A DNA stretch of 64,000 bases from Planctomycetota bacterium (GTDB taxonomy: Bacteria; Planctomycetota; Phycisphaerae; WQYP01): the NCBI GenBank assembly GCA_021785435.1, contig JAJYFE010000002.1:7978-71977 (forward strand), in the 5' to 3' direction. The notes under the pieces are model-generated. The model did no database searches and was not told where the DNA came from. It saw only the letters and a program-made list of their open reading frames with translations. The position numbers and the translations under genes were made by a program. Of this stretch, positions 16,721 to 47,100 are shown piece after piece (position 1 is the first letter of the stretch; every line of letters begins with the position of its first letter).

Positions 16721-17565
16721 TGCCGTGGCAAAACCACGCACGAAAGCTCACACGAAGCCGCGAAGAGCGCGAAGGACGAATTAGAGAACCCGGGGGCAAT
16801 AGTTGCAGCGAAGTGAACTCGGAAAGAGTTTTAAGGGACCATTAAAAAGGTGTTTTCGCGGCCTTCGCGGCGTAGTTTAGTCGCCAGGGCGACCGTGAGA
16901 TAAGGAATCATAAACACCGCGTCGAAGAGTCGCTACGGCGACCTTTAGCGCGGTGAACCGAACGAGAATGGAGCACCCGAAGGCCCCGCGGAAGAGGAAT
17001 GATGAGCCGCGGGTGACCCGAAACACCAGAACCACAGTTTACCCGCCGCGGCGGGGATCACACGGATGGCACGGATGACGTTGGTTTTCTCCCTCGATTC
17101 GTGCAACCAGGTAGTCTGTGGTGAAGGACGCTAAAAAGACGAACTCCAAGCACCGCGCTTCAGCGCGGTGAACCGATGTAGACAGGTTTTAGGTTATAGC
17201 GGTCAGGGAGCAGGGAACCGTAAGGGAAAAAGTAAAAGGAAAAAAACTGAAAACTGAACACCGAAAACTTCGTTAGTTCCGTCCCGGCGGATGTGGGTGT
17301 GCACCGGGTCGAGTGATCCGGGGCCGGCTTTTCGCGCGGCGTTTAAAAAGGGAGGTGCCTTATGGCACGGCAGGATTTACATCTTCGTGACGGTGGTTTG
17401 TTCGCGGAATTCCGGGCGGCGTTCGCCGGGAGCCGCAAGATTGGTCCCCTTTTTTCAAAGGAGTCTGTCATGTTTAGCCCACGGAAAACGGATCGCGGAG
17501 TCGCCAGGGCGACCAACTTAACCCTGGAAACTGGTAATACTGGCTCTCTTTTAAAGGAGATTACG
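16721..17565 (+). other. Purine-rich ~850-bp non-coding region (candidate long 5' leader or ncRNA) between the regulator and the DUF1559 gene
   Basis: No credible ORF. Repeated GCGCGGTGAACCGA motifs at ~16946 and ~17163. Hairpins CACCGCGC-ttca-GCGCGGTG, GTCGCCAGGGCGAC (16880 and 17500) and GTCGCTACGGCGAC. GC content is lower than in the flanks. Confidence 0.4.
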
Positions 17566-23607: not shown

Positions 23608-25614
23608 CTACCGTTTCTCGCCTCGTACCGCCACGGCGCCTTGCATCTGGCCGGTGGTACGTTCAGCACCGGTGAAGCCCAGAGTTTCGTCGAGCCATTG
23701 ATCGGCAAGGGTTACGCCGCGTCTCTGGCGGACGGCGCGATGACTGGCGAAAAATTGGGCCAAACGCAGAATCAGGCGGCCCGCCAAGTTTGGCAGTGGT
23801 TGGCGACGTCGCCACAGAACCCGCAGCAGACTCGAAAGTCGCGCTAACCGCAGGCGCATCAGATCATCTTCCAGAGAGGCAAAAATGATCGAACTGCCGG
23901 GGTCGCCTTGGCGACCGGCTCGACCGGCGAGTTGGCGGTCAATGCGCGGAGCTTCGTGGCATTCGGTGGCAATCACATGCAGGCCGCCGCGACGGCGGAC
24001 ATCGTCCGATAATTGGATGTCCGTTCCGCGACCGGCCATATTGGTGGCCACGGTGATGACAGCCGTTTGCCCGGCCTGAGCGACAATATGGGCTTCTTGC
24101 TCATGGTGCAGGGCGTCAAGCACCACATGCCCAAGCCCCAGGGCGGTTAAGCGCCGGCTTAGGTCGCCGCTGGCGCGGACACTGCGCGTACCAATCAGAA
24201 GCGGGCGGCCCTGGGCATGCACACGCTGAATCTCGGCCAGCACGGCCTGCGTGCGGGATTCACTGTCGGCGAAAAGATGGGTTCCCTCCCGCCGGCGGAT
24301 ACAAGGCCGGTGCGGACCGATGCGGACCAGGGGCAGGCCATAGGTGCGCATCAGCTCCGAGCGAACCTCGGCCATGGTGCCAGACATACCCGCCAGCTTG
24401 GGGTAGCCGCGGAAGAACTGCTGAAAGCTGATGCGGGCCATGGTGCTCCGCGGGCCTTGGACATCTACGCGTTCGCGAGCCTCGACCATCTGGTGCAGGC
24501 CGTCGCGCCACTGGCGATCCGGCATCAGCCGGCCGGTAAATTCATCGACGATGACCACTTTGCCTTCGCGCACCACATACTGGACATCCGGCAGGTAGAA
24601 ATGTTTCGCTTCCAGCGCACGGCCGATCAGTTCGGCGCTGCGCCGGTGGGAGCGCCACACGCCGGGCAGGTCGTGGCGGAGTTCATCAATGCGGTTGGGG
24701 CCGGAGCCGGTGATTTCGACGGTTTTATCCGCCGCCACCAACTGATAGTGGACGCCTAACCGCATCCGCTCCGCCAGACGGTTGGCCATATGGTAGGCTT
24801 CAAGTTGCTCGGAGTTGGGCTGATCGGTGGAAATAATCAGGGGCGTAACCGCTTCATCGATGAGGATGGAATCGGCCTCGTCGACGATGGCGAAATGTAA
24901 CTCCCGCTGCACCCGCCCCGTCGCTGCCGGGCCAAGGCCGGCATGGCCACGCCGGTTCCCCGCCGCCCGGGCGATCAAGCGGTCTCGCAAGAGATCGGCG
25001 CAAACTTCCTTGTTGGTGCAATAGGTGACATCCGCGGCATAAGCCTGCGCGCGGGCGACCGCATCCATTTCGGCGTGGATATAGGCGACCGAAATCCCGC
25101 AGAAATTGTAGAGTTCGGCAAACTGTGCGGCGTCACGCCTGGCCAGATAGTCGTTGACGGTCACCACGTGTACGCCCCGACCACGCCAGCCTTCCAGTAC
25201 GGCCGGCAATACGGCGGTGATCGATTTACCCTCGCCGGTGGCCATTTCGATAAACAGGCCGTCGGCCAGAGCCAGGCCGCCGGCAAACTGTTCCAAGTAG
25301 AGCGTCAGACCGATTTTCCGGCGAACGACCTCGCCGATCAGGGCCGTGGCCCGCACACGATCAGCGGTAGATTGGCGATTACGGCGAAAACGTACGGCTA
25401 AACTGACCAGTTCATCGCGCAGGGCGGCCTCCGAAATATCGCGCAACGCGGGCAGGAGGCATAGGGCTTGCTCCGCCAGACGAAGGTAGTAATTTCGGCG
25501 GGGCCTAAGCTCGCGCAGTTTGCAAGCGGCCGCGTACCACAAGGCATCCAGGCCGGTCGGCAACGGCTCCGCCGAAAATTCAGCAGCGCGTTTTCGCCGC
25601 TGGCCGCTCGACAT
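23608..25614 (-). CDS. SecA-family ATPase paralog (NBD1-PPXD-NBD2 with a truncated scaffold/wing region)
   Basis: Walker A EMATGEGKSI followed by VHVVTVNDYLARRDA. Walker B LHFAIVDEADSILIDEAVTPLIIS. PPXD-like YVVREGKVVIVDEFTGR. Motifs KLAGMSGT, TNMAGRGTDI and RIDRQLAGRAGRQGDPGSS. Only ~95 aa follow motif VI, against ~330 in E. coli SecA. GGAGG RBS 7 nt before the ATG at 25614. Confidence 0.8.
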   Translation of the reverse strand: MSSGQRRKRAAEFSAEPLPTGLDALWYAAACKLRELRPRRNYYLRLAEQALCLLPALRDISEAALRDELVSLAVRFRRNRQSTADRVRATALIGEVVRRKIGLTLYLEQFAGGLALADGLFIEMATGEGKSITAVLPAVLEGWRGRGVHVVTVNDYLARRDAAQFAELYNFCGISVAYIHAEMDAVARAQAYAADVTYCTNKEVCADLLRDRLIARAAGNRRGHAGLGPAATGRVQRELHFAIVDEADSILIDEAVTPLIISTDQPNSEQLEAYHMANRLAERMRLGVHYQLVAADKTVEITGSGPNRIDELRHDLPGVWRSHRRSAELIGRALEAKHFYLPDVQYVVREGKVVIVDEFTGRLMPDRQWRDGLHQMVEARERVDVQGPRSTMARISFQQFFRGYPKLAGMSGTMAEVRSELMRTYGLPLVRIGPHRPCIRRREGTHLFADSESRTQAVLAEIQRVHAQGRPLLIGTRSVRASGDLSRRLTALGLGHVVLDALHHEQEAHIVAQAGQTAVITVATNMAGRGTDIQLSDDVRRRGGLHVIATECHEAPRIDRQLAGRAGRQGDPGSSIIFASLEDDLMRLRLARLSSLLRVLWRRRQPLPNLAGRLILRLAQFFASHRAVRQRRGVTLADQWLDETLGFTGAERTTGQMQGAVAVRGEKR

Positions 25615-25683
25615 GGCGACGCCTCCACCGCTATTCGTCGGCTGGCAGGTTGGCGCAAGCGGCAATTTAGGCATGTGCGTCAT

Positions 25684-25830
25684 AGGCAGTGACCAGTGAC
25701 CAGCGAACCGTGACCAGAGATAAGGAACTCCTTAATGATGACCAATGGCCAGCGAGCAGTGACCAGTGACCGAAGATAAGGCATTCCTTTTTTCTGGTCT
25801 CTGCGTCACTGATCACTGGTCACTGGATCA
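25684..25830. repeat. Two tandem hairpin units of the TGACCAG-heptad / AGATAAGGAAYTCCTT element filling the gap between the M50 gene and the SecA paralog
   Basis: GTGACCAGTGACC arms at 25688-25703, matched by the reverse-complement arm GGTCACTGATCACTGGTCAC at 25808-25828. Cores AGATAAGGAACTCCTTA (25717) and AGATAAGGCATTCCTTTTTT (25777). Confidence 0.6.
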
Positions 25831-28009
25831 TGCGGGCGATCATATCCCACACCTGCACGGCCGCCGGCGCGGATTGCAAGGACAACCGTACCGACACCGT
25901 CTGGCCGGGCCGTAAACACGACAGGCACGGGGAGGTCGGCTGCAACTCCAGGACAAAAAAGGGATTCCGGGCGGCCTGGGGCGTTTTCGCGGCCGGGGCG
26001 ATGGCTCCGCCAGCCAGATAGCTTAGGGCGGCCGAAAACAGTTGGGTTTCCCCGCCGGGGTATTCATGCACGATACGGGCGGATATCAAATCACCCGGTT
26101 GGCCAAACGGCCGGATCTGAGCCTGCCGAGATCCCCCCTGAAAGATGCGGCCCGCTTGATCCTGGCTGACGGCGGCCAACACCAGCAGTTGGTTACAGTT
26201 GACGACTTCACCCAAAGGGTCTCCGCGATGAAAATACGCCCCTATCCGCCGATCTAGATCAGCCGCCACCCATTCACCCGCCACCGGCGCGCGCACCACC
26301 AAGTCCGCGATACGCCGCTTAACATCGGTCAACTCGTCGTTGATGGCGCGAATTTGCCGGGCATAAATTTGCGCTTCAGCCGGATCGTGGGCAATCGCCT
26401 GGAGCCTCTTCATGCGGGTCTGGTCCCACTGCGCCAATAGTTCGGCGCGTTGGGTCAAGAGGTCGGGATTGGTCAAACGCACGAGAACTGTTCCGTCCCG
26501 GCCGGCGGTGACCTCTCGGCCTGATGCGACAAAACGGTGCAGGAATCCATCCGCCTGCGCGTAGACATTCCGTTGCGGTTCACCCCGCACCACGGCCTCA
26601 GCACGGCAATGCTGGGGCAGGGGAATCATCCCCAAGCCGACAATCGCCGCCGCGGCGATTCCGCCGCTCCATAGCAAGGCCCGGGGCCGCCGCCCGTGCA
26701 GTTCCGGGCTGGTCAGCACGTACCAGACACAACGGCCCAGCGGCACGACCACCCAGGCGATGATGCCGGCGGCCGCCATCACCATCAGCAGCAGCATGGC
26801 CGCCGGATATTGGTTCAGCGCCCTGATCAGGAACAACAAGATGCCGACCGATACCAACACCCTCACGACAACCGCACCAACCATATACGCCACCAGCCAA
26901 GCCCGCTGGCCGGGGGCTTCGGTCGGATCCAGCGCCCGTGGCACACGGAAAAGATAGTGGCGGAACAGGAATGAGACATATTGCATGCATCGGCCCAATA
27001 GATTGGGAATCTGCAATAGATCACAGCAAATGTAGTAACCGTCATAACGCAGAAATGGATTGCCGTTGAAAAGCACCGTTGCGACCGAGCCAATGAGCAC
27101 CAGGTCGTAGCAGAGAATGTTCGCCGCACTGCCGGGACTGGTCAGCGTCCAGAGAATCGCCGCGGTCGCGGCAACGGCAAAATCCATCCACATGCCCGCC
27201 GCCCCCACCACGACCCGGCGCCAGCGGTTCTTAAACGCCCACGCGCTGGAGGCATCGACATACGGAATGGGGGTGAAAACCAGCAGCATCAGCCCCATGA
27301 TGTGCACTTCGCCCGTGCGGCCTTCGCGCCAGCCGAATTTCTTGCACGCCAGGGCGTGGGCGGATTCGTGGAGCGTTTTGTCGATTACAAAGGCCAGGTA
27401 CAGCAGCAGCCAGTTGCCGGGCTTGAGCACCGTGGCGATACTCTGGGCCGCGCTGGAGAGACTGCGGCCCGAAGTCAGCACCGCGTAGACGGCGGCGACG
27501 AACAGCGCCAGCCAGAGCAGCAGCCCCGGCCAGGAAAATATCCAACCGAATACTGGAGTCACGGCGTTCAGCACGGCATCCGGATCAAAAAGCGGAATGC
27601 GTGGGAAGAGTAGGTTCATCAGGTTACCTTGGAGTTCGCGTTTGCGACGCTGCCGGTAGCGCCGCATCATCGACGCGGCATCCGGCGGCAACTCGGATTC
27701 CAATAGATTGCTGGACGCCAGTTGGCCAAGCAGTTCCAACGCCTCGGGTTGGGAAGGGGCGTCGTCTTCCAGCCGAGCCAGGCAGATCTCCCAGCACTGG
27801 GCCACGGTCCGTCTCCCGTCCATGAGGCCGATGAACTCGTAGGCCGAGCGGTTCAGCCGGAAATGGGTGTTGTTGGCTTGATCCTGCACCACATACCAGC
27901 GTTTGCCGCGATACGTTTGGCGGACGATCGCCACGCCGCTGCGGATGCGTGGCTTTAAGCCCGCCACCAAGTGCCAGGATTCATGGAAAATGGATTCAAT
28001 GCGCGGCAT
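25820..28009 (-). CDS. Tri-domain fusion: PqqD-like peptide-binding domain + peptidase M50 (site-2 protease) membrane domain + HlyD-family periplasmic adaptor domain
   Basis: N-terminal HFRLNRSAYEFIGLMDGRRTVAQCWEICLARL matches the PqqD consensus (LNxtAxxIxxLxDGRRxVA). HESAH zinc motif inside a TM helix. NGNPFLRYDGY matches the M50 NxxPxxxLDG motif. The C-terminal 250 aa is a HlyD-type barrel-sandwich/beta-barrel domain (VVRAPVAGEWV). The ORF-track start at 28036 lies inside a heptad repeat, so the start was moved to the ATG at 28009. Confidence 0.65.
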   Translation of the reverse strand: MPRIESIFHESWHLVAGLKPRIRSGVAIVRQTYRGKRWYVVQDQANNTHFRLNRSAYEFIGLMDGRRTVAQCWEICLARLEDDAPSQPEALELLGQLASSNLLESELPPDAASMMRRYRQRRKRELQGNLMNLLFPRIPLFDPDAVLNAVTPVFGWIFSWPGLLLWLALFVAAVYAVLTSGRSLSSAAQSIATVLKPGNWLLLYLAFVIDKTLHESAHALACKKFGWREGRTGEVHIMGLMLLVFTPIPYVDASSAWAFKNRWRRVVVGAAGMWMDFAVAATAAILWTLTSPGSAANILCYDLVLIGSVATVLFNGNPFLRYDGYYICCDLLQIPNLLGRCMQYVSFLFRHYLFRVPRALDPTEAPGQRAWLVAYMVGAVVVRVLVSVGILLFLIRALNQYPAAMLLLMVMAAAGIIAWVVVPLGRCVWYVLTSPELHGRRPRALLWSGGIAAAAIVGLGMIPLPQHCRAEAVVRGEPQRNVYAQADGFLHRFVASGREVTAGRDGTVLVRLTNPDLLTQRAELLAQWDQTRMKRLQAIAHDPAEAQIYARQIRAINDELTDVKRRIADLVVRAPVAGEWVAADLDRRIGAYFHRGDPLGEVVNCNQLLVLAAVSQDQAGRIFQGGSRQAQIRPFGQPGDLISARIVHEYPGGETQLFSAALSYLAGGAIAPAAKTPQAARNPFFVLELQPTSPCLSCLRPGQTVSVRLSLQSAPAAVQVWDMIARMIQ

Positions 28010-28040
28010 TTTCGGTGACCAGTGACCAGTGGCCAATGAT
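28010..28040. repeat. TGACCAG heptad repeat (left flank of the four-helix-bundle cassette)
   Basis: GGTGACCAGTGACCAGTGGCC. Confidence 0.55.
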
Positions 28041-28046
28041 ATGGAA

Positions 28047-28505
28047 TTACCCAGATTTCAGGCGGAGTGTGCGGATCGTGGCAAAAAGAATCCGCGCGAT
28101 TTCATCCGCAGCGTCGAGCAGTTGCTGCGCCGTCTGATGGTCCAAGTAATCTATATCCCGCATCCAGCTGATCCAGTACTTCGACTCCTGACATTCCTTG
28201 TATGCAATTGACGCCTGGTGCGACAGTTCCATGCCAGAAATGGCGGCGCCCGCCTCCGCCAGATTTGCGCCGATGGAGGTCCCGCTTCTGAGCAGCTGTC
28301 TGGACAATACGAAGTCGCGCTTTCGCCGGCGCGCGTCTTCGCAAGTCTTCACCACACGGAGCGCAAAGCCATAAGCCTTCACATACGCGGGACCCCCGGC
28401 GGCAGCGCCATCATTCTTGGGGTATCGCACTGCCGGCCCCGTCGTGCAACTGCCCTCTGCCACGTTATCGGTCACGGTGTTCCCTTTCCTCTGGTCACTG
28501 GTCAC
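28047..28505 (-). CDS. Four-helix-bundle protein (23S rRNA intervening-sequence protein family)
   Basis: LSRQLLRSGTSIGANLAEAG and KECQESKYWISWMRDIDYLD are signatures of this family. 152 aa. Confidence 0.8.
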   Translation of the reverse strand: MTSDQRKGNTVTDNVAEGSCTTGPAVRYPKNDGAAAGGPAYVKAYGFALRVVKTCEDARRRKRDFVLSRQLLRSGTSIGANLAEAGAAISGMELSHQASIAYKECQESKYWISWMRDIDYLDHQTAQQLLDAADEIARILFATIRTLRLKSG

Positions 28506-28532
28506 TGGTCACTGGTTACTGGTCACTGACTT
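28487..28532. repeat. Five tandem copies of heptad CTGGTCA (one variant CTGGTTA); right flank of the four-helix-bundle cassette, overlapping the stop codon of the TolC-family gene
   Basis: CTGGTCACTGGTCACTGGTCACTGGTTACTGGTCACTGAC. Inverted relative to the 28010-28040 copy. Confidence 0.65.
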
Positions 28533-30414
28533 TCACGCCGCTGAAACGCAGTAGCGTGCCTTTGGCCTGCTGAAACTTCACCAGGTCCACATCGTAACGG
28601 GCAATGGCGGCCTGCTCGGCTTGACTGGCCGCCGCGAGGTTTTGCGCCGCATCCAACTCCAGCTGCAAGAACGTGGGGGTCAGACTTTGGCCCGATTGTT
28701 CCTGCACGCGCAGGCCCGTCACCACGCGCTGGGCGGCCGCGCGCCGCCGTCGAGCCGCCCGCAATTGCTGCCAGTCTTCCGCCAGATTCCACAGGCTGAT
28801 TACAATGTCGCGCGTGACATTCTGGGCATCACGCAGCAGACGAGTAAGCGCCCCTTGGCGCTGGTAGCGACGACGCTCCAGCTCGGCTTTTGCGGCCCGG
28901 TTGCCCAGCGGCACTTCCAATTTCAAACCCACTTCGTACCCAATATGCGGATCATTGAGCATGCGATTGTCCGCGCCGGCGAAACTGCCGTTCGGGGCCA
29001 ACCCCATGGAACTCGTCGAGGCCACCAAGTCCAGCTTGGGTAAAAGGCCGTTTTCCGCAACCTGCACATCGATTCCAGCGCGGGCCATCGCGGCGCGATC
29101 GTGCGCCAATTCCGGCCGATTGTGCAAAGCCGTGGCAATGTCGTCGCGCAAATCGAACAGGATGGGCACCGCTAACAGCGGTGTGGACGGTACCATCCGC
29201 ACCGTGGAAGCCACCGGAATCGAAGGCGTGTTTATCTGGGCCTTAAGCCGCTGCGAGTAATCATGGGCGTCGCGCAGCGTGCCGGCCAGTGTGAAACGCG
29301 CCTGGGCCAGCGCCGAATTCGCCTGGCTGATCTGCACGGCATCGACATCCATGCCTTGACGCGCCAGCAACCGCGATCGGATCTGCTGGAGCGAGGCGAT
29401 CAACCGCTGTTCGATGCGGATGTCGGCCGTCGCATTGGCCAATGAAAAATAGGTTTCCTCCAACTGGGCGAGGATCTTGATCACGCCGGCGCGAAAGTCC
29501 GCCAGGGCGATCCGCCGGTTGGTCCGGGCGATGCGTATCTTGGCCGAAGTGACCGTGGGACCAAAACCCCGTAACAACGGTTGGGAGAGGCCCAGCGTCA
29601 GGGCATTGCTGTAGGAAGGATTAATGTCCGGCGGCAAGCTGGAAGAGGAATGGACATCCAAATAGTTGGATGTTCCTTGCAGATACATGGTGCCGCCAGT
29701 GGGCAGCAAACCCCGCAATCCGATGTCGTTATTGAACGTGTCCTGATTGTTGTAACCGATGGGTCCTACTCCGCCGATAGTGGACGGGTATGGGGTTGGC
29801 TGATTCTGCTTCTGCCAGTCGCTTTCGCCAAAAAAGATCGGGTCGAATGCCGCCTCGGCTTGGATCAGTTCGGACTGGGCGATTCGAGGCGAAAACGATT
29901 CGAGCTTGATGGATAAATTATGCCCGAGGGCATCGTCCATCGCCTTGGCCAGTGAAATGGGAACCCTGCCGCCAGGGGGCAGCGTGGCGATGGTGGGTTG
30001 GGTTGACGCCGTGGTTGTGGTTGGGCCGGGGGTGGGCTGTGACGATGGCCCCACTTGGGTACCGGGCGCGGGGAGTTCCTGTATGCCATGGTCGGCCAGT
30101 ATCGCCTCTTTTCCTAAAACCAGGCCGTAATTATTACGGATGTTATGCGCCACCGCAGCAGCCGCATAAGCCTGCCATTCGGCGCCATGGGGACCTTGCT
30201 CGAACACTGAGGCACAGCCGGCCAAGGCAAACAGCGCGGCTACCAGTGCCGTCAAGGCACACGCGCCCCAGCCGGAGCGCTGTAGCCGGCAGCTGACACG
30301 AAGCAACGAAGACTTAACGGATTTTTGGGGTGCGGGGCGCGGTGGAACCGGCAACCGAAAGAATTCGCGGATTACGCGGAGGGCGGGGATTTTGGGTAGG
30401 AACGAAATGAACAA
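28516..30414 (-). CDS. TolC/NodT-family outer-membrane factor lipoprotein
   Basis: Signal peptide and lipobox ALFALAGC. Two OEP-type repeat halves with long coiled-coil segments. Thr/Pro-rich linker. The start is probably non-ATG and lies upstream of the signal peptide. Confidence 0.75.
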   Translation of the reverse strand: MFISFLPKIPALRVIREFFRLPVPPRPAPQKSVKSSLLRVSCRLQRSGWGACALTALVAALFALAGCASVFEQGPHGAEWQAYAAAAVAHNIRNNYGLVLGKEAILADHGIQELPAPGTQVGPSSQPTPGPTTTTASTQPTIATLPPGGRVPISLAKAMDDALGHNLSIKLESFSPRIAQSELIQAEAAFDPIFFGESDWQKQNQPTPYPSTIGGVGPIGYNNQDTFNNDIGLRGLLPTGGTMYLQGTSNYLDVHSSSSLPPDINPSYSNALTLGLSQPLLRGFGPTVTSAKIRIARTNRRIALADFRAGVIKILAQLEETYFSLANATADIRIEQRLIASLQQIRSRLLARQGMDVDAVQISQANSALAQARFTLAGTLRDAHDYSQRLKAQINTPSIPVASTVRMVPSTPLLAVPILFDLRDDIATALHNRPELAHDRAAMARAGIDVQVAENGLLPKLDLVASTSSMGLAPNGSFAGADNRMLNDPHIGYEVGLKLEVPLGNRAAKAELERRRYQRQGALTRLLRDAQNVTRDIVISLWNLAEDWQQLRAARRRRAAAQRVVTGLRVQEQSGQSLTPTFLQLELDAAQNLAAASQAEQAAIARYDVDLVKFQQAKGTLLRFSGVKVSDQ

Positions 30415-30653: not shown

Positions 30654-32120
30654 CTACACCCATAACTTCATCCGCAGCCAGTCGATAAGGCGGCGCGTCC
30701 AAATCCAGATGTAATGGCCTTTCCCCGCGTCGATGCGGGCCGTGCCCTGCATCCCCGGATGAAACCAGGTCGGGGGGCGAATCAACCGCGCCCATACATC
30801 GAACACATTCTTCTTATGCCTCACCTGGGCCGCCGGATCGACCCGGGAAACGACCAAACGCACCTTGATGCCCGGATTGGAGGCCGGCGCCAGGGAGCCA
30901 CTTTCGCCCGCGTGGATATAAAGAATGTCCGCATCCGCCACGCGGATGCGCGCCACCAACGGTTTCAGCGGCGCCACCGTAAAAAGCACCTGACCCTTGC
31001 GCACCGGCGAACCGATTTTCCGCTCCAGCCGACCCGTCAGGACCTCGCCGGAAAGGGCCGACCGGATATCCGCATGGCGGATTTCCCGTTTGAGCAGACG
31101 AATCCGAGCCGCGGCGGCGTTGGCCCCATCCGCCGCGATCTGGGCGTCGGCGAACTTGCCCCGACTTTGGGCGATCTGCTCTTGTTTAAGATAGGTTGAC
31201 CGTTTCGCCTCGGCCGTGGCCAATTGGTCGCGCAAACTGGCTGTATCCAGGGTCGCCAATGTGGTCTGTTTAGCCGTGATCTCATCGCCAGGCAAAACGT
31301 CAACTGTCCGCAGATAGCCGTCGAATGGAGCGATCACCTGGGCCTGCCGAGTTGGTTCCAGCCGAAAGGGCGCCCGAATTCGAAATGTCCCGACGCCAAA
31401 AATCGCCCATCCCAGCAACCCAGCAATCGCCACCGCCGCCGCTTTCACCCACGTGTGCTTTGGCCCCACCGCCAGCGCCAAGCCACGCCGCAGCGATTCA
31501 GCCAGTTTTACGCCAATCCACCGCTCGTGCCGCCAGGCGTCCGCGATCCGCGGCGTCAACAAATCCGCCAGCCGGCGCATCGTTTCAAGTTCGGTCTGAT
31601 CCGGTGTGCGCGGCGCGGCGAACTCGAAAAGCAACGCCCCCCCAAGCTCGCCGTGCCGCAGCGGAAGCACGAGCACCGAACGATGCTCATCGCTTTGGCT
31701 TAACTTCTCGGCGCAACGGTACAGAAATTTAGAATCCGGTGGCGCTGGGACCAGGACTTCGCAATCCTGATCCAGGCATTCCTCCATCGCCTCCTCAATC
31801 AGGATCACTGCCTGCATCTTGCGCAGGATTTTTTCCGTGTGGCTCATTGCCACGACGTGGACTTGGCGGCCTTTCAGTATCCCCAGCGTCACCCGCGCGG
31901 CGGCGAAATCCGCGGCGAGCTGGTTGCAAACCGCCATCGCCAGGGCCATGAAGTGCTTGAAGTCCTGCGCCAGGGCCGCCAGAGAGCCTAGCGTCTTTTC
32001 GTGTAGTTCCGCCCGCCGTTGCTGCTCTTGCGCCGCCTGGACCTGCTGCTGCGTATGCTCCCACGCCGCCTGCGGCACCATCACATAGGGGGACTCGGTC
32101 ACACTCTGCGGCTGACTCAT
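30654..32120 (-). CDS. GAF-like N-terminal cytoplasmic domain + TM helix + HlyD-family membrane fusion (periplasmic adaptor) protein
   Basis: GAF-like block ending VLVLPLRHGELGGALLFEF. TM WVKAAAVAIAGLLGWAIFGV. Lipoyl-like QVIAPFDGYLRTVDVLPGDEI. Coiled coil. Beta-barrel GMQGTARIDAG. Confidence 0.6.
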   Translation of the reverse strand: MSQPQSVTESPYVMVPQAAWEHTQQQVQAAQEQQRRAELHEKTLGSLAALAQDFKHFMALAMAVCNQLAADFAAARVTLGILKGRQVHVVAMSHTEKILRKMQAVILIEEAMEECLDQDCEVLVPAPPDSKFLYRCAEKLSQSDEHRSVLVLPLRHGELGGALLFEFAAPRTPDQTELETMRRLADLLTPRIADAWRHERWIGVKLAESLRRGLALAVGPKHTWVKAAAVAIAGLLGWAIFGVGTFRIRAPFRLEPTRQAQVIAPFDGYLRTVDVLPGDEITAKQTTLATLDTASLRDQLATAEAKRSTYLKQEQIAQSRGKFADAQIAADGANAAAARIRLLKREIRHADIRSALSGEVLTGRLERKIGSPVRKGQVLFTVAPLKPLVARIRVADADILYIHAGESGSLAPASNPGIKVRLVVSRVDPAAQVRHKKNVFDVWARLIRPPTWFHPGMQGTARIDAGKGHYIWIWTRRLIDWLRMKLWV

Positions 32121-32140: not shown

Positions 32141-32195
32141 CCAGTGACGCAGTGGCCAGAGACCCTAAATAAGGAACTCCTTTGCTCTGGTCACG
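32141..32195. repeat. Degenerate heptad/AAATAAGGAACTCCTTT hairpin element that fills the 70-bp gap between the two adaptor genes
   Basis: CCAGTGACGCAGTGGCCAGAGACCCTAAATAAGGAACTCCTTTGCTCTGGTCACGGGTCA, with CCAGAG/CTCTGG stem arms. Confidence 0.55.
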
Positions 32196-33120
32196 GGTCA
32201 TTGAAATTCACCGTTACTTCCTGGCCCGCGGGGAGATGGCGCGGATTCGGCACGCGCAATTCCACCTGCACCGTCGCACTCGAGGGATCCGCTACCTCGG
32301 CGATCCACCGCACCGTACCGGTAAGCCGCCCGCCTGAGGCGAGCGTAACGGTACCCGTCTGTCCAACCCGCAACCGCCGTGCGGCGTCCAGCGCTACGGT
32401 CGCCATCACCCGCAAAGGATCGACCTGCACCAACTGGATCACTTTTTGCGCTGGCTGCACCGGCATTCCGATCCGGCCGCGCCGATCGTCGATGACTCCA
32501 TCGAAGGGCGCTAAAATTTCACGATCTATCAGCGCCTGCCGGGCTTGCCCCAGCGCCAACTGATCCGCCTGATGCTTGAGCCGGGCCAGCTGCAACGACA
32601 GTTGATCCATAATCACTTTCAGCTTCGCCTGCTGCAGTTCAAAATTCGTGACCGCATGTTTGCGGTAACCAAATTCCTTTTCCGCCAGAACCACTTGGTC
32701 GTACGCGAGTTGGGCCTTGCCGGCGGCAACTTGCAGCGTGCTCTTGGCCTTAAGCGCCGCCGCCCGGACCGCGAAGTCTTCGCGCTCATGATGTTCCGCG
32801 GCGAGCAATTCGCCGCGCTTAACCGCCGCTCCGCGCTGCACGCGAACCTCGCCAATCACGCCGCCCTGCGCGAAGCCCAGCCACACATTCCGCCAGGCGC
32901 GGGCTACCCCGGGAAAGCCCGCCGCATTGTCGGATGGACGGGTGGCTTGAGCGCTGTTCGCAGTAAACAGAAATATCAGCAACACCAGCGCTGCCGTATG
33001 GTTTAAGAATAAAGCGGTTTTCCCTATATATTCTTTCGCTTGCATTGTGGCCTTTGCTTTGTGACCAAGCCAGGAAACTGTGGCGCTTAGGTAGCCAGCA
33101 ACACCCCCGGCAAAAGCCAT
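32191..33120 (-). CDS. HlyD/RND-adaptor family periplasmic membrane fusion protein
   Basis: N-terminal TM anchor, coiled-coil hairpin, lipoyl motif EILAPFDGVIDD and a beta-barrel domain. An alternative start is the ATG at 33045 (MQAKEY). Confidence 0.6.
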   Translation of the reverse strand: MAFAGGVAGYLSATVSWLGHKAKATMQAKEYIGKTALFLNHTAALVLLIFLFTANSAQATRPSDNAAGFPGVARAWRNVWLGFAQGGVIGEVRVQRGAAVKRGELLAAEHHEREDFAVRAAALKAKSTLQVAAGKAQLAYDQVVLAEKEFGYRKHAVTNFELQQAKLKVIMDQLSLQLARLKHQADQLALGQARQALIDREILAPFDGVIDDRRGRIGMPVQPAQKVIQLVQVDPLRVMATVALDAARRLRVGQTGTVTLASGGRLTGTVRWIAEVADPSSATVQVELRVPNPRHLPAGQEVTVNFNDP

Positions 33121-40075: not shown

Positions 40076-40258
40076 GGCACTTTCCCTTTCATATAATGGG
40101 GCATGATAATCCTCATCGTTGCCACCTGGCCAATAGCGTCTGCGCCCGAACCGAATACGCCTTTGACCGCAAAAAATTTCCCCTGTTTCGCGCCAGAAAA
40201 AGCTGGAGCGCATAATAACCAGGCCGACCAAGGCTGTCCACACATTACAGTTCACTCC

Positions 40259-43200
40259 TCACGCGGCCAACAGCGCCCCGGATATCAACGGCGGCTGCAG
40301 CGGATTGGCCAAAAGCCCTGTTGGGCCAATGATCGCCGGAGGTAGGGCAAATTCACTGTTGTCCGCGGTTGGCGCTGTGCCGCCCGCGAAGCTTGCTTCA
40401 GATGCGGCGCCGAATATCGATCCGCCGACAGTGACGGATGGCGTCAAATTGCCGGTGGGGCCCACGCCACCGGTGCACGGCGCAGCGGGCGTCAACGTGC
40501 CAGTGTTATTCAGCGTCAATGTCTCGCCGGTATTCAGGCTCGGCGCGCTATCGAGTGTCGCCGTCAAGGTCAGGACCGCGCCACCGCCCGCGCCGCCCGG
40601 GGTCAAGCCGGCGCCACCGGGCGTGGTGGCGCCGGACAAAATGGCGTCGATGGCCGGCGACTGCGTGGTGGCGCTCAACGCCTTACCATAGTGGTCACGC
40701 ACCGCCGTGAAGTCTTGCAGATTCACGACACCGCTGTAGCCGAAGTTGCCGTGGTCCCAGCCCTGATTCGCCTGGCCGTAATGATCCCGCACCGCGGTGA
40801 AATCCGGCAAGGTCACGAGGCCGTCCAGGTTGGCATCGCCCGGCAGGGTGGCCATGATTTTCTCCTGGCCCGCGCTTAAGCCGTTGACAACGCCATCGGC
40901 GCCGTTGGCGTAGCCTACGCTATAGCCGCTCGGCGCGGTGATGGCGCCACTGGCGATGTAGCCCTGGATCGTGGTATTGGGGTTTGTCCCGCTGCCATAG
41001 GTGATGATCACGCCGTTGCCAACAGCAGTGTTATCCAGATTCAGCGTCGCCCCGCCGGCGATCGTCAAACCGGACGTGCCGTCCAATGTGCCGCCGGAGC
41101 CGACAATCAGCGCACCGGCGTTGATGGTTGTCAGACCGGTGAAAGTGTCGCTGTTTTCAAGGGTCAACGCCCCGCCGCCGGTGACGGTCAAACCGCCGTT
41201 GCCGGTGATGGCGCCGGTCGCGAGGCTAGCCAACAGATTGGTGTTGACCGTGCCGCCGCCGCTGTTGAGCGTCAGGGCGTTACCGATGGTCAGGCTGCCG
41301 CCGCTGTTGTTTTCCAATGTGCCGCCGTCGAGGGTGATCCCGCCACCGGGCAGGGCGTTGCCCGAGTCGGCCAGCAGGGTCGAAGAACCGGCGGTATCGC
41401 TTAATTCCAGCGTGCCCGCAAAACCCGCATTGTTGCCGGAAAGCTCGACGTTGCCGTCGGTCAGTTGCAGTGTGGCTGCCGCTGGACCGTCGATGTCGCC
41501 GGTGAATTGGAGCGTATATGCACCGCTGAAACCGCCGGAGTCGATTATATTCGAAGTTCCCGATACCGCCAGAACATTACCAATGCTCACTGTGGATGCC
41601 GTGGAACCGGTGTAAGCCAGGTCGCCATTATTCAAAGTGATCGTGGCGCCGGGAGCGGGCAAACTCGCGGGGCTGGCGAACTGCAGTGTGGCCGCCGCCA
41701 AAGGCCCACCAACCTGCAACGTGCCGAGGGTGAAATCGCCCGTGCCATTGTTGGTGCCGCTGAAATTGACTGCACCATTTTCAATCGTCAACGTCTGGCC
41801 GGTCGTATCGGTGACCGTTCCGGAATACGTCACAGGGTTACTGGCGGTGGCCCCGCCGGCATTGATGATACCGTTAGCCTGAAGGGTGAGGTTATTCGCA
41901 GAGCTTAGACCGGAGGCATATTGCAGGGTGCCGCCACCAAGACCAACGGTAATGGCGGCGCTGGCTGGCAACAGCGCGGGTGCCGTGGTGAAATCGACCG
42001 TGGCGCCATTCTCAAGCGTCAGACCGCCGGTTAGCTGCGAATCATCACCGCTTAGCGTGAGCGTATGAGGGCCAGAGACAACCAACGGCCCGCTGGCGAT
42101 GATCGGGGCACTGATGGTGGCGTTATTGTCGAGCGTGATGGTGCCGCTAAGGGTCAAAGGATCGCTGCTGGTGCCGGAAATTGTGTAAGAATCGCCGCTG
42201 CCCATGCTGTTGAAGATCAGGCCACCGGCGGAAACCTGGCCGCCACTGTCATCAATAGTGATTGTGTACGATCCGCTGCCGCCGTTGCCGATGGAAGCAA
42301 CATCGCCGCTGGTCCAGGCCGTGGTGCCGCTGCCCCAGCTGGCGGCGCTCGCGCTCCAGGTGCCGTCGCCATCAACGCCGGTGCCCTTTGGATCCCAAGT
42401 TAACGCCGTTGGCCCCGCGGTAGGCGTCAACAAAAACGCCTCGGTTTTGCCGCCGCGAACGGCCCCGAACCCTACGATGTCTCCGTTGGAATTAATGCCC
42501 GTGGATTCCTCAAGCGCCCAGCCCGGATTGTTCAGAATCAATGAAGCCAGTGGTGTCATGGTTCCATTGGCGTAGATGAAGGCCTGGCTGTCACCAAGCG
42601 AGTCCGAACGGTAGTAGCCCACAATGACGCCTGAATTGTTGATCGCCAAGGGGTACGTGCCGAAGCCATCGACGTCGCCTAAGTCATGCATCGTGCCATC
42701 GTAGAAGAAAGCATGGTCATCGCCGCCGGTGGTGGCGGGAGAGAAGCCAACCACGTCGCCGGAATCATTGACCGCGGTAGCAGTGCTGGCGTTGCCGCCC
42801 AGCGTACCAAGATCCTGCATTTCAGGATTGCCGGAGACACCGCTGGTCCCACCGTTGGTCCACAGGAACGCGTGGGATGGATTCCCCGTGCCGGAGGTCG
42901 TTGAACTGCCAACGATATAGGTACCGTTCGGGCTGATTCCGCTGGCATAGCTTGCTGATCCACCCAGCGTGCCCAAATCCGTCATGCTGTTGTTTGACAC
43001 GGTCGGGTTGGGGAAGAGGAACGCATGGTATGCGTCGGCGTTGGTGCCGCTGGTGCCGACTACGTCTCCAGCGGTGTCAATGCCCGCACCGTAGCTGACT
43101 GGAAGACCCAGCGAGCCGCTCAGTGAGCCTAGAGCCACCGTGAGTCCGCCGGTGTCTGCGGTGCCGCTGCCGCCCGAATAAAGGAACGCATTGTAATTTT

Positions 43201-43741
43201 GCCCGGCGGTTTGGCCGGAGCCGGCGATCTGGCCGCTGGCGTTAATGGCGAGCGCCGACCAGTTGGAACTGCCCGGGAACGGCACGGGGCTATATTGGTT
43301 GCCGGAATACACGAACCCCTGGTTGTAGGAGGAAGTTGAGGTCTCAAAAGTCGCGTAACCCACGATCTGGTTGGAGTCGTTCATCCCGGTGGCGAACGTG
43401 GCCGAGGCGTCGGAAGGAATGCCCAAGCCCTGAATCGTATAATAAGTTGGCACGGATGGAGCATCAGTGCCGGCCTGTTGCGACCCGGCCGTCAACGGCA
43501 TCACAACCGACGCGGATGTCGGCGGGTTATTCGCCAACAGGCCAGCGGCGGCCCCGGCCGATGCGCTCAGGAGCACGCGCGGCTCCAGCGCTTCAAGACG
43601 TGGGCCGCGCCGTGCCACGCGGCGATGCTTGGCGGCCCTGCGGCGGCTGCGCCTCCGTAATACGCTGTCCAAATTGTGCAAAAAGATAAGGAAGGGCACC
43701 GCCGCACTCCCTAAATTCGAGCACCGCTCGCTGGAATCCAC
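40259..43741 (-). CDS. Giant secreted protein: Arg-rich N-terminus with a LEALEPRVLLSA motif, beta-strand repeat passenger-like region, two dockerin-like Ca-binding repeats
   Basis: N-terminus RRRSRRRAAKHRRVARRGPRLEALEPRVLLSASAG. Dockerin-like DANLDGLVTLPDFTAVRDHYG and VVNLQDFTAVRDHYG. PATR-like GxxTLTLSG repeats. Confidence 0.7.
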   Translation of the reverse strand: MDSSERCSNLGSAAVPFLIFLHNLDSVLRRRSRRRAAKHRRVARRGPRLEALEPRVLLSASAGAAAGLLANNPPTSASVVMPLTAGSQQAGTDAPSVPTYYTIQGLGIPSDASATFATGMNDSNQIVGYATFETSTSSYNQGFVYSGNQYSPVPFPGSSNWSALAINASGQIAGSGQTAGQNYNAFLYSGGSGTADTGGLTVALGSLSGSLGLPVSYGAGIDTAGDVVGTSGTNADAYHAFLFPNPTVSNNSMTDLGTLGGSASYASGISPNGTYIVGSSTTSGTGNPSHAFLWTNGGTSGVSGNPEMQDLGTLGGNASTATAVNDSGDVVGFSPATTGGDDHAFFYDGTMHDLGDVDGFGTYPLAINNSGVIVGYYRSDSLGDSQAFIYANGTMTPLASLILNNPGWALEESTGINSNGDIVGFGAVRGGKTEAFLLTPTAGPTALTWDPKGTGVDGDGTWSASAASWGSGTTAWTSGDVASIGNGGSGSYTITIDDSGGQVSAGGLIFNSMGSGDSYTISGTSSDPLTLSGTITLDNNATISAPIIASGPLVVSGPHTLTLSGDDSQLTGGLTLENGATVDFTTAPALLPASAAITVGLGGGTLQYASGLSSANNLTLQANGIINAGGATASNPVTYSGTVTDTTGQTLTIENGAVNFSGTNNGTGDFTLGTLQVGGPLAAATLQFASPASLPAPGATITLNNGDLAYTGSTASTVSIGNVLAVSGTSNIIDSGGFSGAYTLQFTGDIDGPAAATLQLTDGNVELSGNNAGFAGTLELSDTAGSSTLLADSGNALPGGGITLDGGTLENNSGGSLTIGNALTLNSGGGTVNTNLLASLATGAITGNGGLTVTGGGALTLENSDTFTGLTTINAGALIVGSGGTLDGTSGLTIAGGATLNLDNTAVGNGVIITYGSGTNPNTTIQGYIASGAITAPSGYSVGYANGADGVVNGLSAGQEKIMATLPGDANLDGLVTLPDFTAVRDHYGQANQGWDHGNFGYSGVVNLQDFTAVRDHYGKALSATTQSPAIDAILSGATTPGGAGLTPGGAGGGAVLTLTATLDSAPSLNTGETLTLNNTGTLTPAAPCTGGVGPTGNLTPSVTVGGSIFGAASEASFAGGTAPTADNSEFALPPAIIGPTGLLANPLQPPLISGALLAA

Positions 43742-44102: not shown

Positions 44103-47100
44103 TCAAAGCGGCCTCGCCTCTAACGGCAACCTTAAAATATCCGGCGCAAGGCTGGCGTCCAATCCACCCGCTAGCCGGGACGTGGGGCTGGCTCCCGGCG
44201 GAGAAACCGTGCCGAAGCTCGCGGTGGAAATCGGCCCGCCGGAGAAATCCCCCGCTGGCAGGATCCAATATGCGCTACCGCCGAACGACGCGACGACCCG
44301 GACGGCGCCCGAGGTCGTCGAACGGGCCAGCGCCGAGCCGATCGCCGAATCGAAGGCAAGCGCACTACCGTTGCCCGCAACCCCGGCCCCGGCGCGACCA
44401 AGCGGGACCCCTACCTGTGCGGCGGGCCCGTAGCCGCTATTCAATGAGCCAGCGTGTGTCCGGCTCGTGCCCTGGCTGCTCTGCGGGACCGCGGTCGCGC
44501 TAACCACACCCGGTACCAGGAGGTTCGCTATCGGGCTGCCCAAGCCGGTGACCAAGTCGTACCCGGGGCCAGCGTAGTAGCCGTTATAGCCGCTGGTAAT
44601 GTCGTGGAAATCCGTGCTTGGGAGATTATAAAGTGCAGATAGGGTCTGGCCCGAAGAGAGAGAGCCGTCACCCAAAGACGCCCGGCCCTGGTCGACGAGC
44701 GCTACCAGGCCAGCCCACATGGGACAAGCCAGGCTCGTACCGCCCTCCTCTCTATTTATCCACGGTGCCGCTGATCCATAGTCGTAGGAGTCATAGATCG
44801 GCACGCCAGTGGCTGGATCGGCGTCCATCGAGACATCGGGCGTGGTTCGGTACCCAGAACCTAGCCCGTTGGTCTTGCCGCTCTGGTAGGCTGGCTGCGG
44901 TTCGCTTTGGCTGATCCCGCCACCCCCGGCGATCGCTGGATTCCACGAGTCGCTTCCCAGGCTCCAGCCCACCTCGCCACCCCAACTATACCCGCCGCTG
45001 CCATTCGCGTTGACAGTGAGCGTCGTTCCCCCGACCGCGACCACATTGGGCGAATAAGCTGGGTAATTGCCGGGCGCTCCCTGGTCCCCCGTCGAAGCGA
45101 GGAACGTGACTCCACCCGCCAAGCCGGAGCCGCCCGTGTGCCCGGGAGGCGTCACCAGAAGTTTATCGTAACTCGGTTCATATGACCACCACAAGGTCGT
45201 CAGGTCCGACTCAGGCTCGCCCCAGCTCATGGAAACCGCGACGACCCCATTCAACGATGCCGCGGTCTGCACGGCGGTATAAAGGTCGCCAGCAGAGCTA
45301 TTCGCCTCGACGAGCACGATATTGGCGTCCGGCGCGATGACGTGCGCCCATTCGACGTCAAGGGATTCCTCGCTGGTCCAGCTACCGCCATCGGACGGCA
45401 ACTCCGATGAACCACCATCCTGGTTGACCACGGAAAGCGTCGGGCCGCCTGCCGTACCGAACTGCGGCAGACCAAATTCAGCGCTAAACGCATTGGCATC
45501 GGCAACAATGTAGGGATCGTTGTACGCATCGACGATAGCGATCGTCTGGCCCTGCCCGTAAGCCGGCGTACCGCCAAAATTAATCGTGCTGGCGCCATAG
45601 GCGCCCAGACCATACGCCTCCCGCATTTGCGTCGGCGTCAGTCCGGACGGCGTGGTGCTGCCTGGGCCCAGAGCGGGGAGTATGGCCGTAGCGACATTCG
45701 AGACTAAACCCGTGCCGGGGTTGCTTACGGTAACTTCAATGGTATCGCCCGGCTGAGCTTGGTAAGGCCAGTCGCCATACGCCCAACCGCTGAACCCCGC
45801 AACCGTTAACTCTGAGTCGGTCCAATTCGTCACCTCCAGGCCAACAGCATCGCCCGTGCCGCCAGCGTGGAAGTCTTGCGTGACATCGTACACGTCGATG
45901 TACGGGCTTGTGCCGTCGAAAGCTGCCTGCGAGCCGAAGCCGCTGCCACTGATCGTGAGGTCATCATTGTAGTACCAGAGAAACTCGGTTGGCGAACCGG
46001 GAGCAACGCCTGATATCGCTGGTGACTGGGCAGCCGAGTAAGCCGCCAGGTACGGTACCAGCAGGTTGGCCTTGGGGGTTCCCAGGCCTGTCTCATCCTG
46101 ATAGCCGTATTTGGCGTACTGGGAGCCGGCGCTGTTGAGGTAGAAGTCGCTCGCGGAGGCGGTGTACAAGGCGGGCAACGTTTGTGCGTTTCCCGTGAGC
46201 GTCGGCAGACCAGCGTCTGCACGCCCCTGATCCGCCAACGCAATCAGACCGGCCCACTGCGGCGCGCCGGCGCTGGTCCCCAGAACGGCCTCCCAGCCGC
46301 TGCTGGTGTAGATAGCGTACGGCTTAGCGCAGTATGACACGTCCGGGGTGGAGCGGTCGGAGGTGTCGGAGAGGCCGTTGGCGCCCTGTTGATAGCTTGG
46401 CTGCGGCTCGTACTGGCTGGTACCCCAAGCAGTGCCCTGATAGGGACCGTTGCCATCGTGCCAGGCGCTCTCACCACCGGATGGATAGTCGCCCGCAGCA
46501 TCCAGCCCACCGGTCGCCGAAGGGCCGTTAAACACCGTGCCGCCGACGGATAAAACATTGCCTGAAGCGGACGGCCAGTTCACCGTGTTCCATTGGTCGC
46601 CGGCGGCGGCGACGAACGTGACACCGCTCGTTGCGAACGCGGAGTCGAGGGATGTTTCCGTCGCACCACCCCAAAGGGAATCGGACGAATTCCATTCCCG
46701 CCACCCGAGGCTCATCGACACAACCGACGGACTAAAGTTCAGCGCGGTTTTCACAGCGTTCGCTAGATCCACAGGGCTATATGCGCCAATCTGAGGGAGG
46801 CCCCGCCAGGTCCAACCGACCCACGCACTGCTGTCTTCCTCCACTACGACGATTTTCGCGGCCGGCGCCACGGCGTGCGCCCACTCAACGTCAAGCACGT
46901 TTTCCAGTCCATCGCCCGAATCGTTGCCGCAGTTTTCAGTGTCGGGATTATACTGGCCGGGCGAAAGCACGTTGCCGTTTTGGTCGGTTACCGTCAGCCA
47001 GGTACTGGCACCACCGTAGGTGCCATACAGGTTATCGCCATTGGCCGCCTTCATGTTGTAGTCAAACGCGTTCACATCTGCGTAAAGGTTTAGATCGTTG

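Follow-up and report, generated by a model that had tools for sequence, protein, structure and literature searches.

The closest described counterpart of the locus considered here was reported in 2015 by Kamneva, Poudel and Ward (PLoS One, PMC4452313), who used comparative genomics to delineate a group of genes around a 'secondary SecA_DEAD' protein. Besides this truncated SecA-like protein, the set comprised a HlyD protein with 'rather weak' similarity to Peptidase_M50, a GAF-HlyD protein, a HlyD/biotin-lipoyl protein and sometimes an OEP protein, as in META1p2399-2402 of Methylobacterium extorquens. The SecA-like protein was proposed to act as the ATPase, with the M50 protein as a possible pore. 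No function or substrate has been assigned to this locus since that in silico description, and our literature searches found neither an experimental follow-up nor a functional study of the PqqD, M50 and HlyD domain combination. Here we describe a member of this locus on a contig of a Planctomycetota bacterium (JAJYFE010000002.1 of assembly GCA_021785435.1, forward-strand positions 7,978 to 71,977), a stretch of 64,000 nucleotides referred to as the window throughout. Its central gene (25820..28009, minus strand) encodes a fusion, called RRE-M50-HlyD below, of a PqqD-like RiPP (ribosomally synthesised and post-translationally modified peptide) recognition element (RRE), an M50-type intramembrane metalloprotease domain and a HlyD-type periplasmic adaptor. 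We consider it probable, if some way from certain, that this protein is the inner-membrane core of a widespread type-1-like (tripartite) export system for giant surface or secreted proteins carrying an N-terminal LEPR-XLL leader. The M50/HlyD locus as such has been known in silico since 2015; the present analysis adds the assignment of the RRE by fold, the kinship of the RRE-M50 part with RiPP leader peptidases and a proposed link to the LEPR-XLL giants, which was not found in the literature searched.

Several characterised systems share parts of this layout. Secretion systems of type I (T1SS) and peptidase-containing ATP-binding cassette (ABC) transporters (PCATs, with C39 peptidases) likewise combine a periplasmic adaptor with an outer-membrane factor (OMF). 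Like the candidate cargo of the loci studied here, T1SS have giant, repeat-rich and often RTX-type cargo encoded beside the machine, and PCATs couple the removal of an N-terminal leader to export, as is proposed for the present system. The examined loci differ from T1SS in that a crude regular expression found no ABC transporter in them, the energy presumably coming from the SecA-like ATPase, and in that the candidate signal (LEPR-XLL) is N-terminal whereas that of T1SS is C-terminal. PCATs carry a C39 cysteine protease fused to the transporter, whereas here an M50 metalloprotease is fused to the adaptor; three different adaptor paralogues are present, unlike in T1SS or PCATs. Canonical site-2 proteases (S2Ps; RseP, SpoIVFB, MjS2P) resemble the membrane domain in having HExxH in a transmembrane (TM) helix near the cytoplasmic face, a re-entrant beta-hairpin next to it and NxxPxxxxDG on a later TM helix, but RRE-M50-HlyD has no PDZ or CBS domains and bears an RRE in front and a HlyD domain behind. 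Relative to these systems, the locus represents a new variant of the tripartite T1SS/PCAT-like logic, and may even be a secretion-system type of its own.

The architecture of RRE-M50-HlyD was established from its open reading frame (ORF) and translation, from Pfam and NCBIfam profiles and from AlphaFold2 (AF2) modelling. The ORF (729 aa, stop codon included) starts with ATG at 28009, and a TTG-extended form reaches 28036. The original prediction, made by eye, had proposed a PqqD-like N-terminus containing HFRLNRSAYEFIGLMDGRRTVAQ (aa 49-71), a membrane domain with both M50 motifs and a HlyD-type C-terminal part. The corresponding domains were located on the minus strand at 27695..27952 (PqqD/RRE-like, aa ~20-105), 26612..27562 (M50-type, aa ~150-466; PF02163, NF041824, hydropathy, positive-inside rule and AF2) and 25823..26611 (HlyD-type adaptor or membrane fusion protein domain, aa ~467-729). 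Pfam matches of the single protein were borderline: PqqD (PF05402; aa 39-103) scored 22.4 bits (E 1.6e-4) against a gathering threshold of 23.4, Peptidase_M50 (PF02163; aa 205-317) 21.9 bits, below its threshold of 27.2, and HlyD_D23 (aa 480-647) 29.8 bits against 30, while HlyD_3 (aa 571-633) reached 25.5 bits, above its threshold of 22.2. The same domains recurred family-wide. Among 60 diverse relatives with 30-52% identity to RRE-M50-HlyD, Peptidase_M50 was matched by 53 (E<=0.01, best 1.2e-7), HlyD_3 by 38, PqqD by 35 (best E 3.4e-8) and HlyD_D23 by 21; the TIGR03859 PqqD model matched eight. In the AF2 model (mean pLDDT 88.8, built on 91 homologues), the N-terminal domain has three beta-strands and three helices and is winged-helix-like as in leader-binding RREs, and the C-terminal domain has the beta-barrel, lipoyl domain and short alpha-hairpin (aa 515-568) of HlyD-type proteins. 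Both ends of the protein are therefore what had been predicted, by hidden Markov models as well as by fold, and the predicted fold confirms the RRE assignment. As modelled, a single chain joins an RRE on the cytoplasmic side, a HExxH membrane domain that appears to be catalytically competent, and an adaptor in the periplasm.

Hydropathy and AF2 gave the membrane domain seven TM helices and a re-entrant beta-hairpin (aa 235-253) directly after the HExxH helix. The zinc-binding and catalytic motif HESAH (aa 214-218; 27356..27370, minus strand) and the second M50 motif NGNPFLRYDG (aa 315-324; 27038..27067, minus strand; NGNPFLRYDGY with aa 325) are predicted to lie where TM2 and TM4, respectively, end on the cytoplasmic side, so that the claim of a HESAH motif within a TM helix stood. 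Predicted cytoplasmic loops of the 60 relatives had 4.6-8.9 positively charged residues (K+R), and predicted periplasmic ones at most 0.83. The predicted topology is N-in/C-out, which makes the RRE cytoplasmic and the HlyD domain periplasmic, in agreement with the orientation anticipated by the original prediction. Residues H214, E215, N315, N317, P318, D323 and Y325 were invariant in the alignment of the 60 relatives and H218 was conserved in at least 90% of them; H214, E215 and H218 were all invariant in 91 closer relatives. D323 is presumed to be the third zinc ligand. Since HExxH and NxxPxxxxD are invariant down to 30% identity, the domain probably works as a protease and does more than serve as a scaffold.

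For aa 20-422, the nearest homologues that have been characterised, as judged from sequence profiles, are the RiPP leader peptidases MpaP and YydH/LiaK, with homology extending over the RRE and the entire HExxH membrane domain. NCBIfam model NF041824 (daptide_HExxH, RRE-fused intramembrane metalloprotease) matched RRE-M50-HlyD over this region at E 1.4e-44 and all 60 relatives (best E 4e-55), of which 54 were also matched by the model for epipeptide proteases YydH/LiaK (NF058609). The score of 152.8 bits lies below the NF041824 equivalog cutoff of 300, and RRE-M50-HlyD is best regarded as a homologue of daptide MpaP with the same RRE and HExxH layout, not as its orthologue. As its homology is real but distant, the membrane domain is most fittingly described as M50-like, within the RiPP-type kind of HExxH intramembrane proteases. 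MpaP, whose RRE family served as the handle for daptide discovery (bioRxiv 10.1101/2023.03.08.531785), has no HlyD domain, acts on modified peptides of ~25 aa in Gram-positive bacteria and is encoded among modification enzymes. The present loci, in contrast, have no modification enzymes, and their likely substrates measure 1,000 to >12,000 aa; scans of the window revealed no daptide enzymes near the gene. Daptide leaders carry the motif ELExMEAP (bioRxiv 10.1101/2023.03.08.531785), which resembles, at the level of sequence, the LE.LEPR motif of the giants described below.

The architecture had been thought unusual, but it proved to be common, with more than 3,000 clusters at 50% identity across several phyla (3,358 clusters at E<=1e-30). 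More than 1,573 homologues were counted among 8,000 candidates scored in a 90%-clustered collection, and nearly all of 120 listed homologues were full length, at ~725 aa. A scan of species-representative genomes, which gave no matches with a single-protein query and worked with the family alignment as query, found family members in at least 562 species. The 80 loci retained came from Planctomycetota, Verrucomicrobiota, Lentisphaeria, Desulfobacterota, Nitrospirota, Myxococcota, Spirochaetota and alpha-, beta- and gamma-proteobacteria. Family members are named 'putative peptide zinc metalloprotease' at JGI and 'PqqD family peptide modification chaperone' at NCBI. RefSeq labels also include 'site-2 protease family protein', 'PqqD family protein', 'biotin/lipoyl-binding protein', 'HlyD family efflux transporter periplasmic adaptor subunit' and 'hypothetical protein', and 'efflux RND adaptor' is found among the family names as well.

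The gene set of the window, entirely on the minus strand, corresponds to the conserved set in a slightly rearranged order. Downstream of RRE-M50-HlyD lies the gene of a truncated SecA-like ATPase of 691 aa (23608..25683), comprising nucleotide-binding domain (NBD) 1, a preprotein-crosslinking domain and NBD2 as judged by Pfam and by alignment to SecA. SecA_DEAD (2.1e-87), SecA_PP_bind and P-loop_SecA were all present, and SecA_SW was not matched in this protein even at E<=10. The protein aligned to residues ~17-552 of solved SecAs only, with intact ATPase motifs, and stops ~80 residues past NBD2; by these alignments, the helical scaffold/wing, the two-helix finger and the C-terminal domains are missing. 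On the other side are found a TolC-like OMF of the OEP family (28516..30414; PF02321 2.4e-26, TIGR01844) with a lipobox-like LAGC, whose true start is probably internal to the ORF, a GAF-HlyD adaptor paralogue of 488 aa (30654..32120; HlyD_3 5.4e-11, GAF_2 E 0.02) and a short HlyD or RND_mfp-type adaptor of 309 aa (32191..33120; TIGR01730 106 bits, above cutoff). The GAF-HlyD protein consists of a cytoplasmic GAF-like N-terminus, a TM segment and a periplasmic HlyD domain, and matched its counterpart in another locus (L001; loci are cited by our own numbers) at 2e-109. The window locus thus belongs to the group defined in 2015, with the same gene set and phyletic spread, and differs from it by the OMF gene and a gene for a four-helix-bundle protein inserted between the GAF-HlyD and RRE-M50-HlyD genes.

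A census of 84 loci from at least eight phyla or classes, in which ORFs were searched with the proteins of the window, showed the synteny to be nearly invariant. Of 69 loci with enough sequence, 63 had the SecA-like gene immediately downstream of the RRE-M50-HlyD homologue, and 70 of 75 had the GAF-HlyD gene as the immediate upstream neighbour. In 42 loci the flanks measured 6 kb or more on either side; 35 of these had the short HlyD gene, 32 all three partners and seven a TolC-like OMF gene. No ORF in 85 loci displayed an ABC Walker A and signature arrangement, as far as a crude regular expression can tell, and no ABC transporter was annotated in the operons of eight plasmid loci available from RefSeq/GenBank; both results agree with the earlier report (PMC4452313). 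In RefSeq entries the SecA-like protein goes under 'prepilin peptidase' or 'DEAD/DEAH box helicase' (L086 23077-25101; L087 22183-24144; L090 17219-19135; L091 17142-19127), and the Pseudosulfitobacter copy is 43% identical to the SecA-like protein of the window over 601 aligned positions of the latter's 691 aa.

Two further genes were recurrently associated with the operon, neither of them mentioned in PMC4452313, a text that likewise contains no mention of PqqD or of cargo and in which LEPR-XLL has 0 occurrences. DUF3467 (~110-130 aa; motifs YAN..T.EEV..FG.N and AKRL) was found in 24 of the 84 loci, frequently as the first operon gene (e.g. L001 7671-8048, L010, L039, L063 and L084), and in four annotated plasmid loci (L087, L090, L091 and L092); it is absent from the window. 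No similarity of DUF3467 to any PDB entry was detected, and a role as SecB-like chaperone was unsupported, hhalign giving 0.2% probability against an E. coli SecB sequence. SapC (PF07277, E 1e-72) was found inside or beside the operon in eight proteobacterial loci (L025 3551-4249, L041, L045, L057, L070, L077, L080 and L082), and also at L086 22263-23084.

The window contains two candidate cargo genes, both on the minus strand, whose products carry an N-terminal LEPR-XLL leader as defined by NCBIfam NF012209 (LEPR-XLL, 'LEPR-8K'), a 24-aa N-terminal domain with a cutoff of 17 bits. The first encodes a HAF/PATR-repeat protein of 1,160 aa (40259..43741) with the leader ..RRGPRLEALEPRVLLSAS (NF012209 25.5 bits, aa 48-69; motif at nt 43535-43600), and the second a protein of 1,917 aa with Kelch-repeat matches (44103..49856) and the leader ..RPVFEALEPRLLLSGS (26.1 bits, aa 62-84; motif at nt 49605-49673). 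These were the only two matches of a LEPR-XLL regular expression in the window, for a rough chance expectation of ~0.05. A protein of 2,288 aa is also encoded (33389-40255, minus strand). It starts with a signal peptide of the Sec type (MKRTQKRLCLLAAMAAVGSLSLPAMA), contains 10 repeats of the PATR (autotransporter-associated beta-strand) kind and has a C-terminal barrel resembling that of autotransporters.

In the census, 30 of the 84 loci had an ORF of 1,000 aa or more on the same strand within 2.5 kb of the operon, as did 20 of the 42 loci whose flanks both measured at least 3.5 kb; most of these ORFs reached the end of the fetched DNA at >2,000-2,900 aa. Their sequences were heterogeneous, with RTX nonapeptide repeats, Calx-beta, cadherin-like, Big_9 and PKD domains. 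Wherever the N-terminus was visible, it consisted of a short basic stretch followed by LE.LEPR.LLSAD (as in MDKKQKKRGAPLIEALEPRMLFSADMF from L066): the LEPR-XLL motif was present in all 17 genuine N-termini seen, the two window proteins included, and NF012209 scored 24-30 bits, above cutoff, on the giants of L026, L038, L051 and L066. In L005, a divergently oriented LEPR-XLL giant lies ~5 kb away. Among the eight annotated plasmid loci, six had a giant of 4,033-12,919 aa directly upstream; in the other two, no upstream gene is listed or the upstream stretch crosses the record start. Gene order on the RefSeq plasmids, which belong to cultured strains, was giant, (DUF3467), GAF-HlyD, RRE-M50-HlyD homologue, (SapC), SecA-like, short HlyD and (TolC), brackets marking genes that are not always present. 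LEPR-XLL proteins of 12,919 aa and 10,603 aa were found on plasmids of Pseudosulfitobacter sp. DSM 107133 and Pontibrevibacter nitratireducens, a 10,518-aa 'Ig-like' protein with the N-terminus ..HFEALEPRLLLSADF on one of Mesorhizobium ciceri R30, and a giant of 8,848 aa on one of Methylosinus sp. C49. Plasmids of Thalassospira marina (LEPR-XLL protein of 4,033 aa) and Azospirillum sp. TSH58 (giant of 4,969 aa) have no SecA-like gene; these variants, like L029, L058 and L066, keep the giant gene, the adaptors, RRE-M50-HlyD and TolC. That the window giants were coincidental had been considered, given four relatives' loci without giants, and was overturned by the census and the annotated plasmids.

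LEPR-XLL giants, which rank among the largest proteins of bacteria, reach about 8,000-36,000 aa, and some are made and exported without a known transport signal (bioRxiv 10.64898/2026.03.19.712371). In Chlorobium chlorochromatii, proteins of 36,806 aa and 20,647 aa have LEPRxLL N-termini, are reported to be expressed and transferred to the partner cell, and were stated to have 'no known transport signal' (bioRxiv 10.64898/2026.03.19.712371). The genes Cag_663 and Cag_665 of these giants are flanked by SapC and TolC genes (Cag_662-665; same source), a pairing that recurs in the proteobacterial loci. Look-ups in the supplement found nothing linking the 'secA' gene Cag_1676 of this species to a locus of the present type. 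No export route for LEPR-XLL proteins was found in the literature, where other mentions of LEPR-XLL are made in passing; a preprint on giant genes of Omnitrophota was discarded as a parallel, as its SecA-like domains lie inside the giant proteins, a different arrangement.

An export step coupled to processing, rather than the general role of a site-2 protease, had been predicted for RRE-M50-HlyD. This is now strongly favoured, though not proven, because the gene keeps nearly invariant company with those of a SecA-like ATPase, of two other HlyD proteins and often of a TolC-like OMF, because the neighbouring giants share an N-terminal LEPR-XLL leader, and because the RRE-M50 part is homologous to RiPP leader peptidases. 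In the mechanism that we propose, the cytoplasmic RRE would capture the leader (basic stretch and LE.LEPR.LLSAD) as an added beta-strand, like RREs do with RiPP leaders. The fused intramembrane metalloprotease, with its active site at the cytoplasmic face, would then cut the leader off, perhaps at LEPR or just behind it, if the daptide motif is a guide; in that motif L(-7), M(-4) and E(-3) are important, and cleavage comes after it. The SecA-like ATPase, which has the motor and the preprotein clamp and not the SecY-docking parts, would thread the unfolded giant from N- to C-terminus, and the HlyD domain of RRE-M50-HlyD would form, together with GAF-HlyD and the short HlyD protein, a duct to the adjacently encoded TolC-like OMF. 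Whether all this amounts to a distinct secretion pathway, with a leader read by an RRE and clipped by an M50 protease, a SecY-independent SecA-like motor and a hetero-oligomeric duct of three adaptors and TolC, that is, a new type and not a T1SS variant, is close to an even question, to which we would lean slightly towards answering no. Such a pathway would account for the exit from the cell of proteins of 10,000-36,000 aa such as Cag_663 and Cag_665 of Chl. chlorochromatii.

A series of observations weigh against the export system as proposed. All its functional steps rest on gene neighbourhood and homology, and the passage of a polypeptide across the inner membrane through an M50-type domain is left unexplained by it. 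The M50 and PqqD Pfam scores of the window protein are under the gathering thresholds. Although a separate AF2 model of aa 125-470 reached a pLDDT of 91.3, Foldseek found no significant match for the M50 domain model in the PDB, S2Ps included, and PDB sequence and family-profile searches yielded no S2P; the earlier M50 assignment hence holds for the motifs, while its fold is unconfirmed against solved S2P structures. Of the loci with long flanks, no more than about half showed an adjacent giant. In the window itself, the gene directly upstream of the HlyD genes codes for the 2,288-aa PATR protein, with its Sec-type signal and no LEPR-XLL, and the LEPR-XLL genes are 12-22 kb away from RRE-M50-HlyD, beyond the PATR gene. 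The SecA-like gene is missing in L029, L058, L066, L092 (Thalassospira marina pCSC3H3) and L095 (Azospirillum sp. TSH58), suggesting that the motor may be dispensable or encoded elsewhere. Finally, the closest relatives of RRE-M50-HlyD (48-53% identity; L004 and L005) cluster only the M50-HlyD/SecA-like pair.

Other explanations were weighed on the same data. S2P-family proteases such as RseP clear signal peptides, and LEPR-XLL could be an atypical Sec-type signal, its basic n-region being followed by a short hydrophobic LLLSA stretch. The SecA-like ATPase, which retains the motor and preprotein-binding domains, would in this case deliver the giants through SecYEG to the periplasm, where the M50 domain would clear the signal peptide and HlyD/TolC would take over to the outside, as in MacAB-like systems or two-step T1SS adhesin systems; loci from which the SecA-like gene is missing would also fit such a route. 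The SecA-like protein, however, has neither the two-helix-finger scaffold nor the wing and C-terminal tail through which canonical SecA works with SecY and SecB, the ~4-6 hydrophobic residues that follow LEPR are too few for a Sec h-region, and the fusion of an RRE to the protease indicates a sequence-specific capture of the leader in the cytoplasm. We regard this two-step route as unlikely. The absence of a significant structural match to solved S2Ps and the weak Pfam scores speak for another proposal, that of Kamneva et al. (2015), in which the M50-like domain is a non-proteolytic scaffold or pore in place of the membrane domain of an ABC transporter; the passage through the inner membrane must indeed be formed by something. 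Yet the zinc-ligand and catalytic residues of HExxH and NxxPxxxxD are invariant at 30-50% identity, which is not expected of a dead enzyme, and a purely structural role appears very improbable. It is worth noting that this proposal and an export system with a proteolytic M50-like domain are partly compatible if the domain does both jobs.

The homology to leader peptidases (NF041824, NF058609) that argues for leader processing could also point to a RiPP or bacteriocin module, in which RRE-M50 would remove the leader of a short precursor as in the daptide or epipeptide pathways, the giants being bystanders. The JGI and NCBI family names ('putative peptide zinc metalloprotease', 'PqqD family peptide modification chaperone') go in the same direction. 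An all-against-all BLAST of 5,442 small ORFs from the 84 loci recovered only SapC and local noise, with neither a recurrent precursor-like family nor modifying enzymes, and the only small conserved gene is DUF3467, which encodes a well-conserved protein of ~110 aa. Moreover, giants with a conserved leader-like N-terminus adjoin the operon in unrelated phyla, and a SecA-like preprotein motor would be hard to explain for a small peptide, making this reading a very unlikely one. Even less probability is given to a regulatory S2P, by which a membrane-bound regulator would undergo regulated intramembrane proteolysis and the HlyD domain and GAF-HlyD would act as sensors and not as a conduit. M50 proteases are classically involved in signalling, GAF, present on the partner protein, is a small-molecule sensor domain, and Kamneva et al. 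(PMC4452313) suggested a regulatory role for the GAF protein; against this, the loci share no conserved gene for a sigma/anti-sigma or transcription factor, three adaptor paralogues, an OMF and an ATPase make up the parts list of a transport machine, and the RRE homology points to leader peptidases.

Joining the 2015 locus with the LEPR-XLL giants gives a testable model with a leader (LE.LEPR.LLSAD), a reader and cutter (RRE-M50) and a motor (SecA-like ATPase). Should the proposed LEPR-XLL export system be real, an RRE would for the first time be seen at work outside the natural-product pathways of small peptides, and a SecA paralogue for the first time in a machine that spans both membranes and does without SecY. 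The system could then also help to predict or engineer how very large adhesins are secreted. Additionally, the annotation of family members and of their SecA-like partners ('prepilin peptidase', 'DEAD/DEAH box helicase') could be corrected.

Other features of the window were recorded. The four-helix-bundle gene (28047..28505, minus strand; PF05635 '23S rRNA-intervening sequence protein', TIGR02436) is outside the conserved operon; one of the 84 related loci (L044) has such a gene nearby, far from the core. It is flanked by arrays of the heptamer CAGTGAC in inverted orientation (28012-28039 and 28488-28529), and further arrays occupy the 136-nt spacer between the RRE-M50-HlyD and SecA-like genes (25687-25703, 25750-25773 and 25809-25825) or lie at 32187-32203. 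CAGTGACCAGTGACCAG, with at most two mismatches, had 11 matches against 0 expected, and the CAGTGAC repeat looks like a small mobile or STRR-like (short tandemly repeated repetitive) repeat. The TGA stop codon of the RRE-M50-HlyD gene falls inside the first heptamer and the protein is ~6 aa shorter than the family consensus (..QRRFxI), so that the repeat element seems to have clipped its C-terminus. A planctomycete origin of the window is suggested by a GC content of 62%, by the nearest relatives, the best of which are Phycisphaerae and Planctomycetaceae, and by a plus-strand gene at 17362-18849, whose product combines a methylation motif of the prepilin type at its N-terminus with a weak DUF1559 match, as is typical of Planctomycetota.

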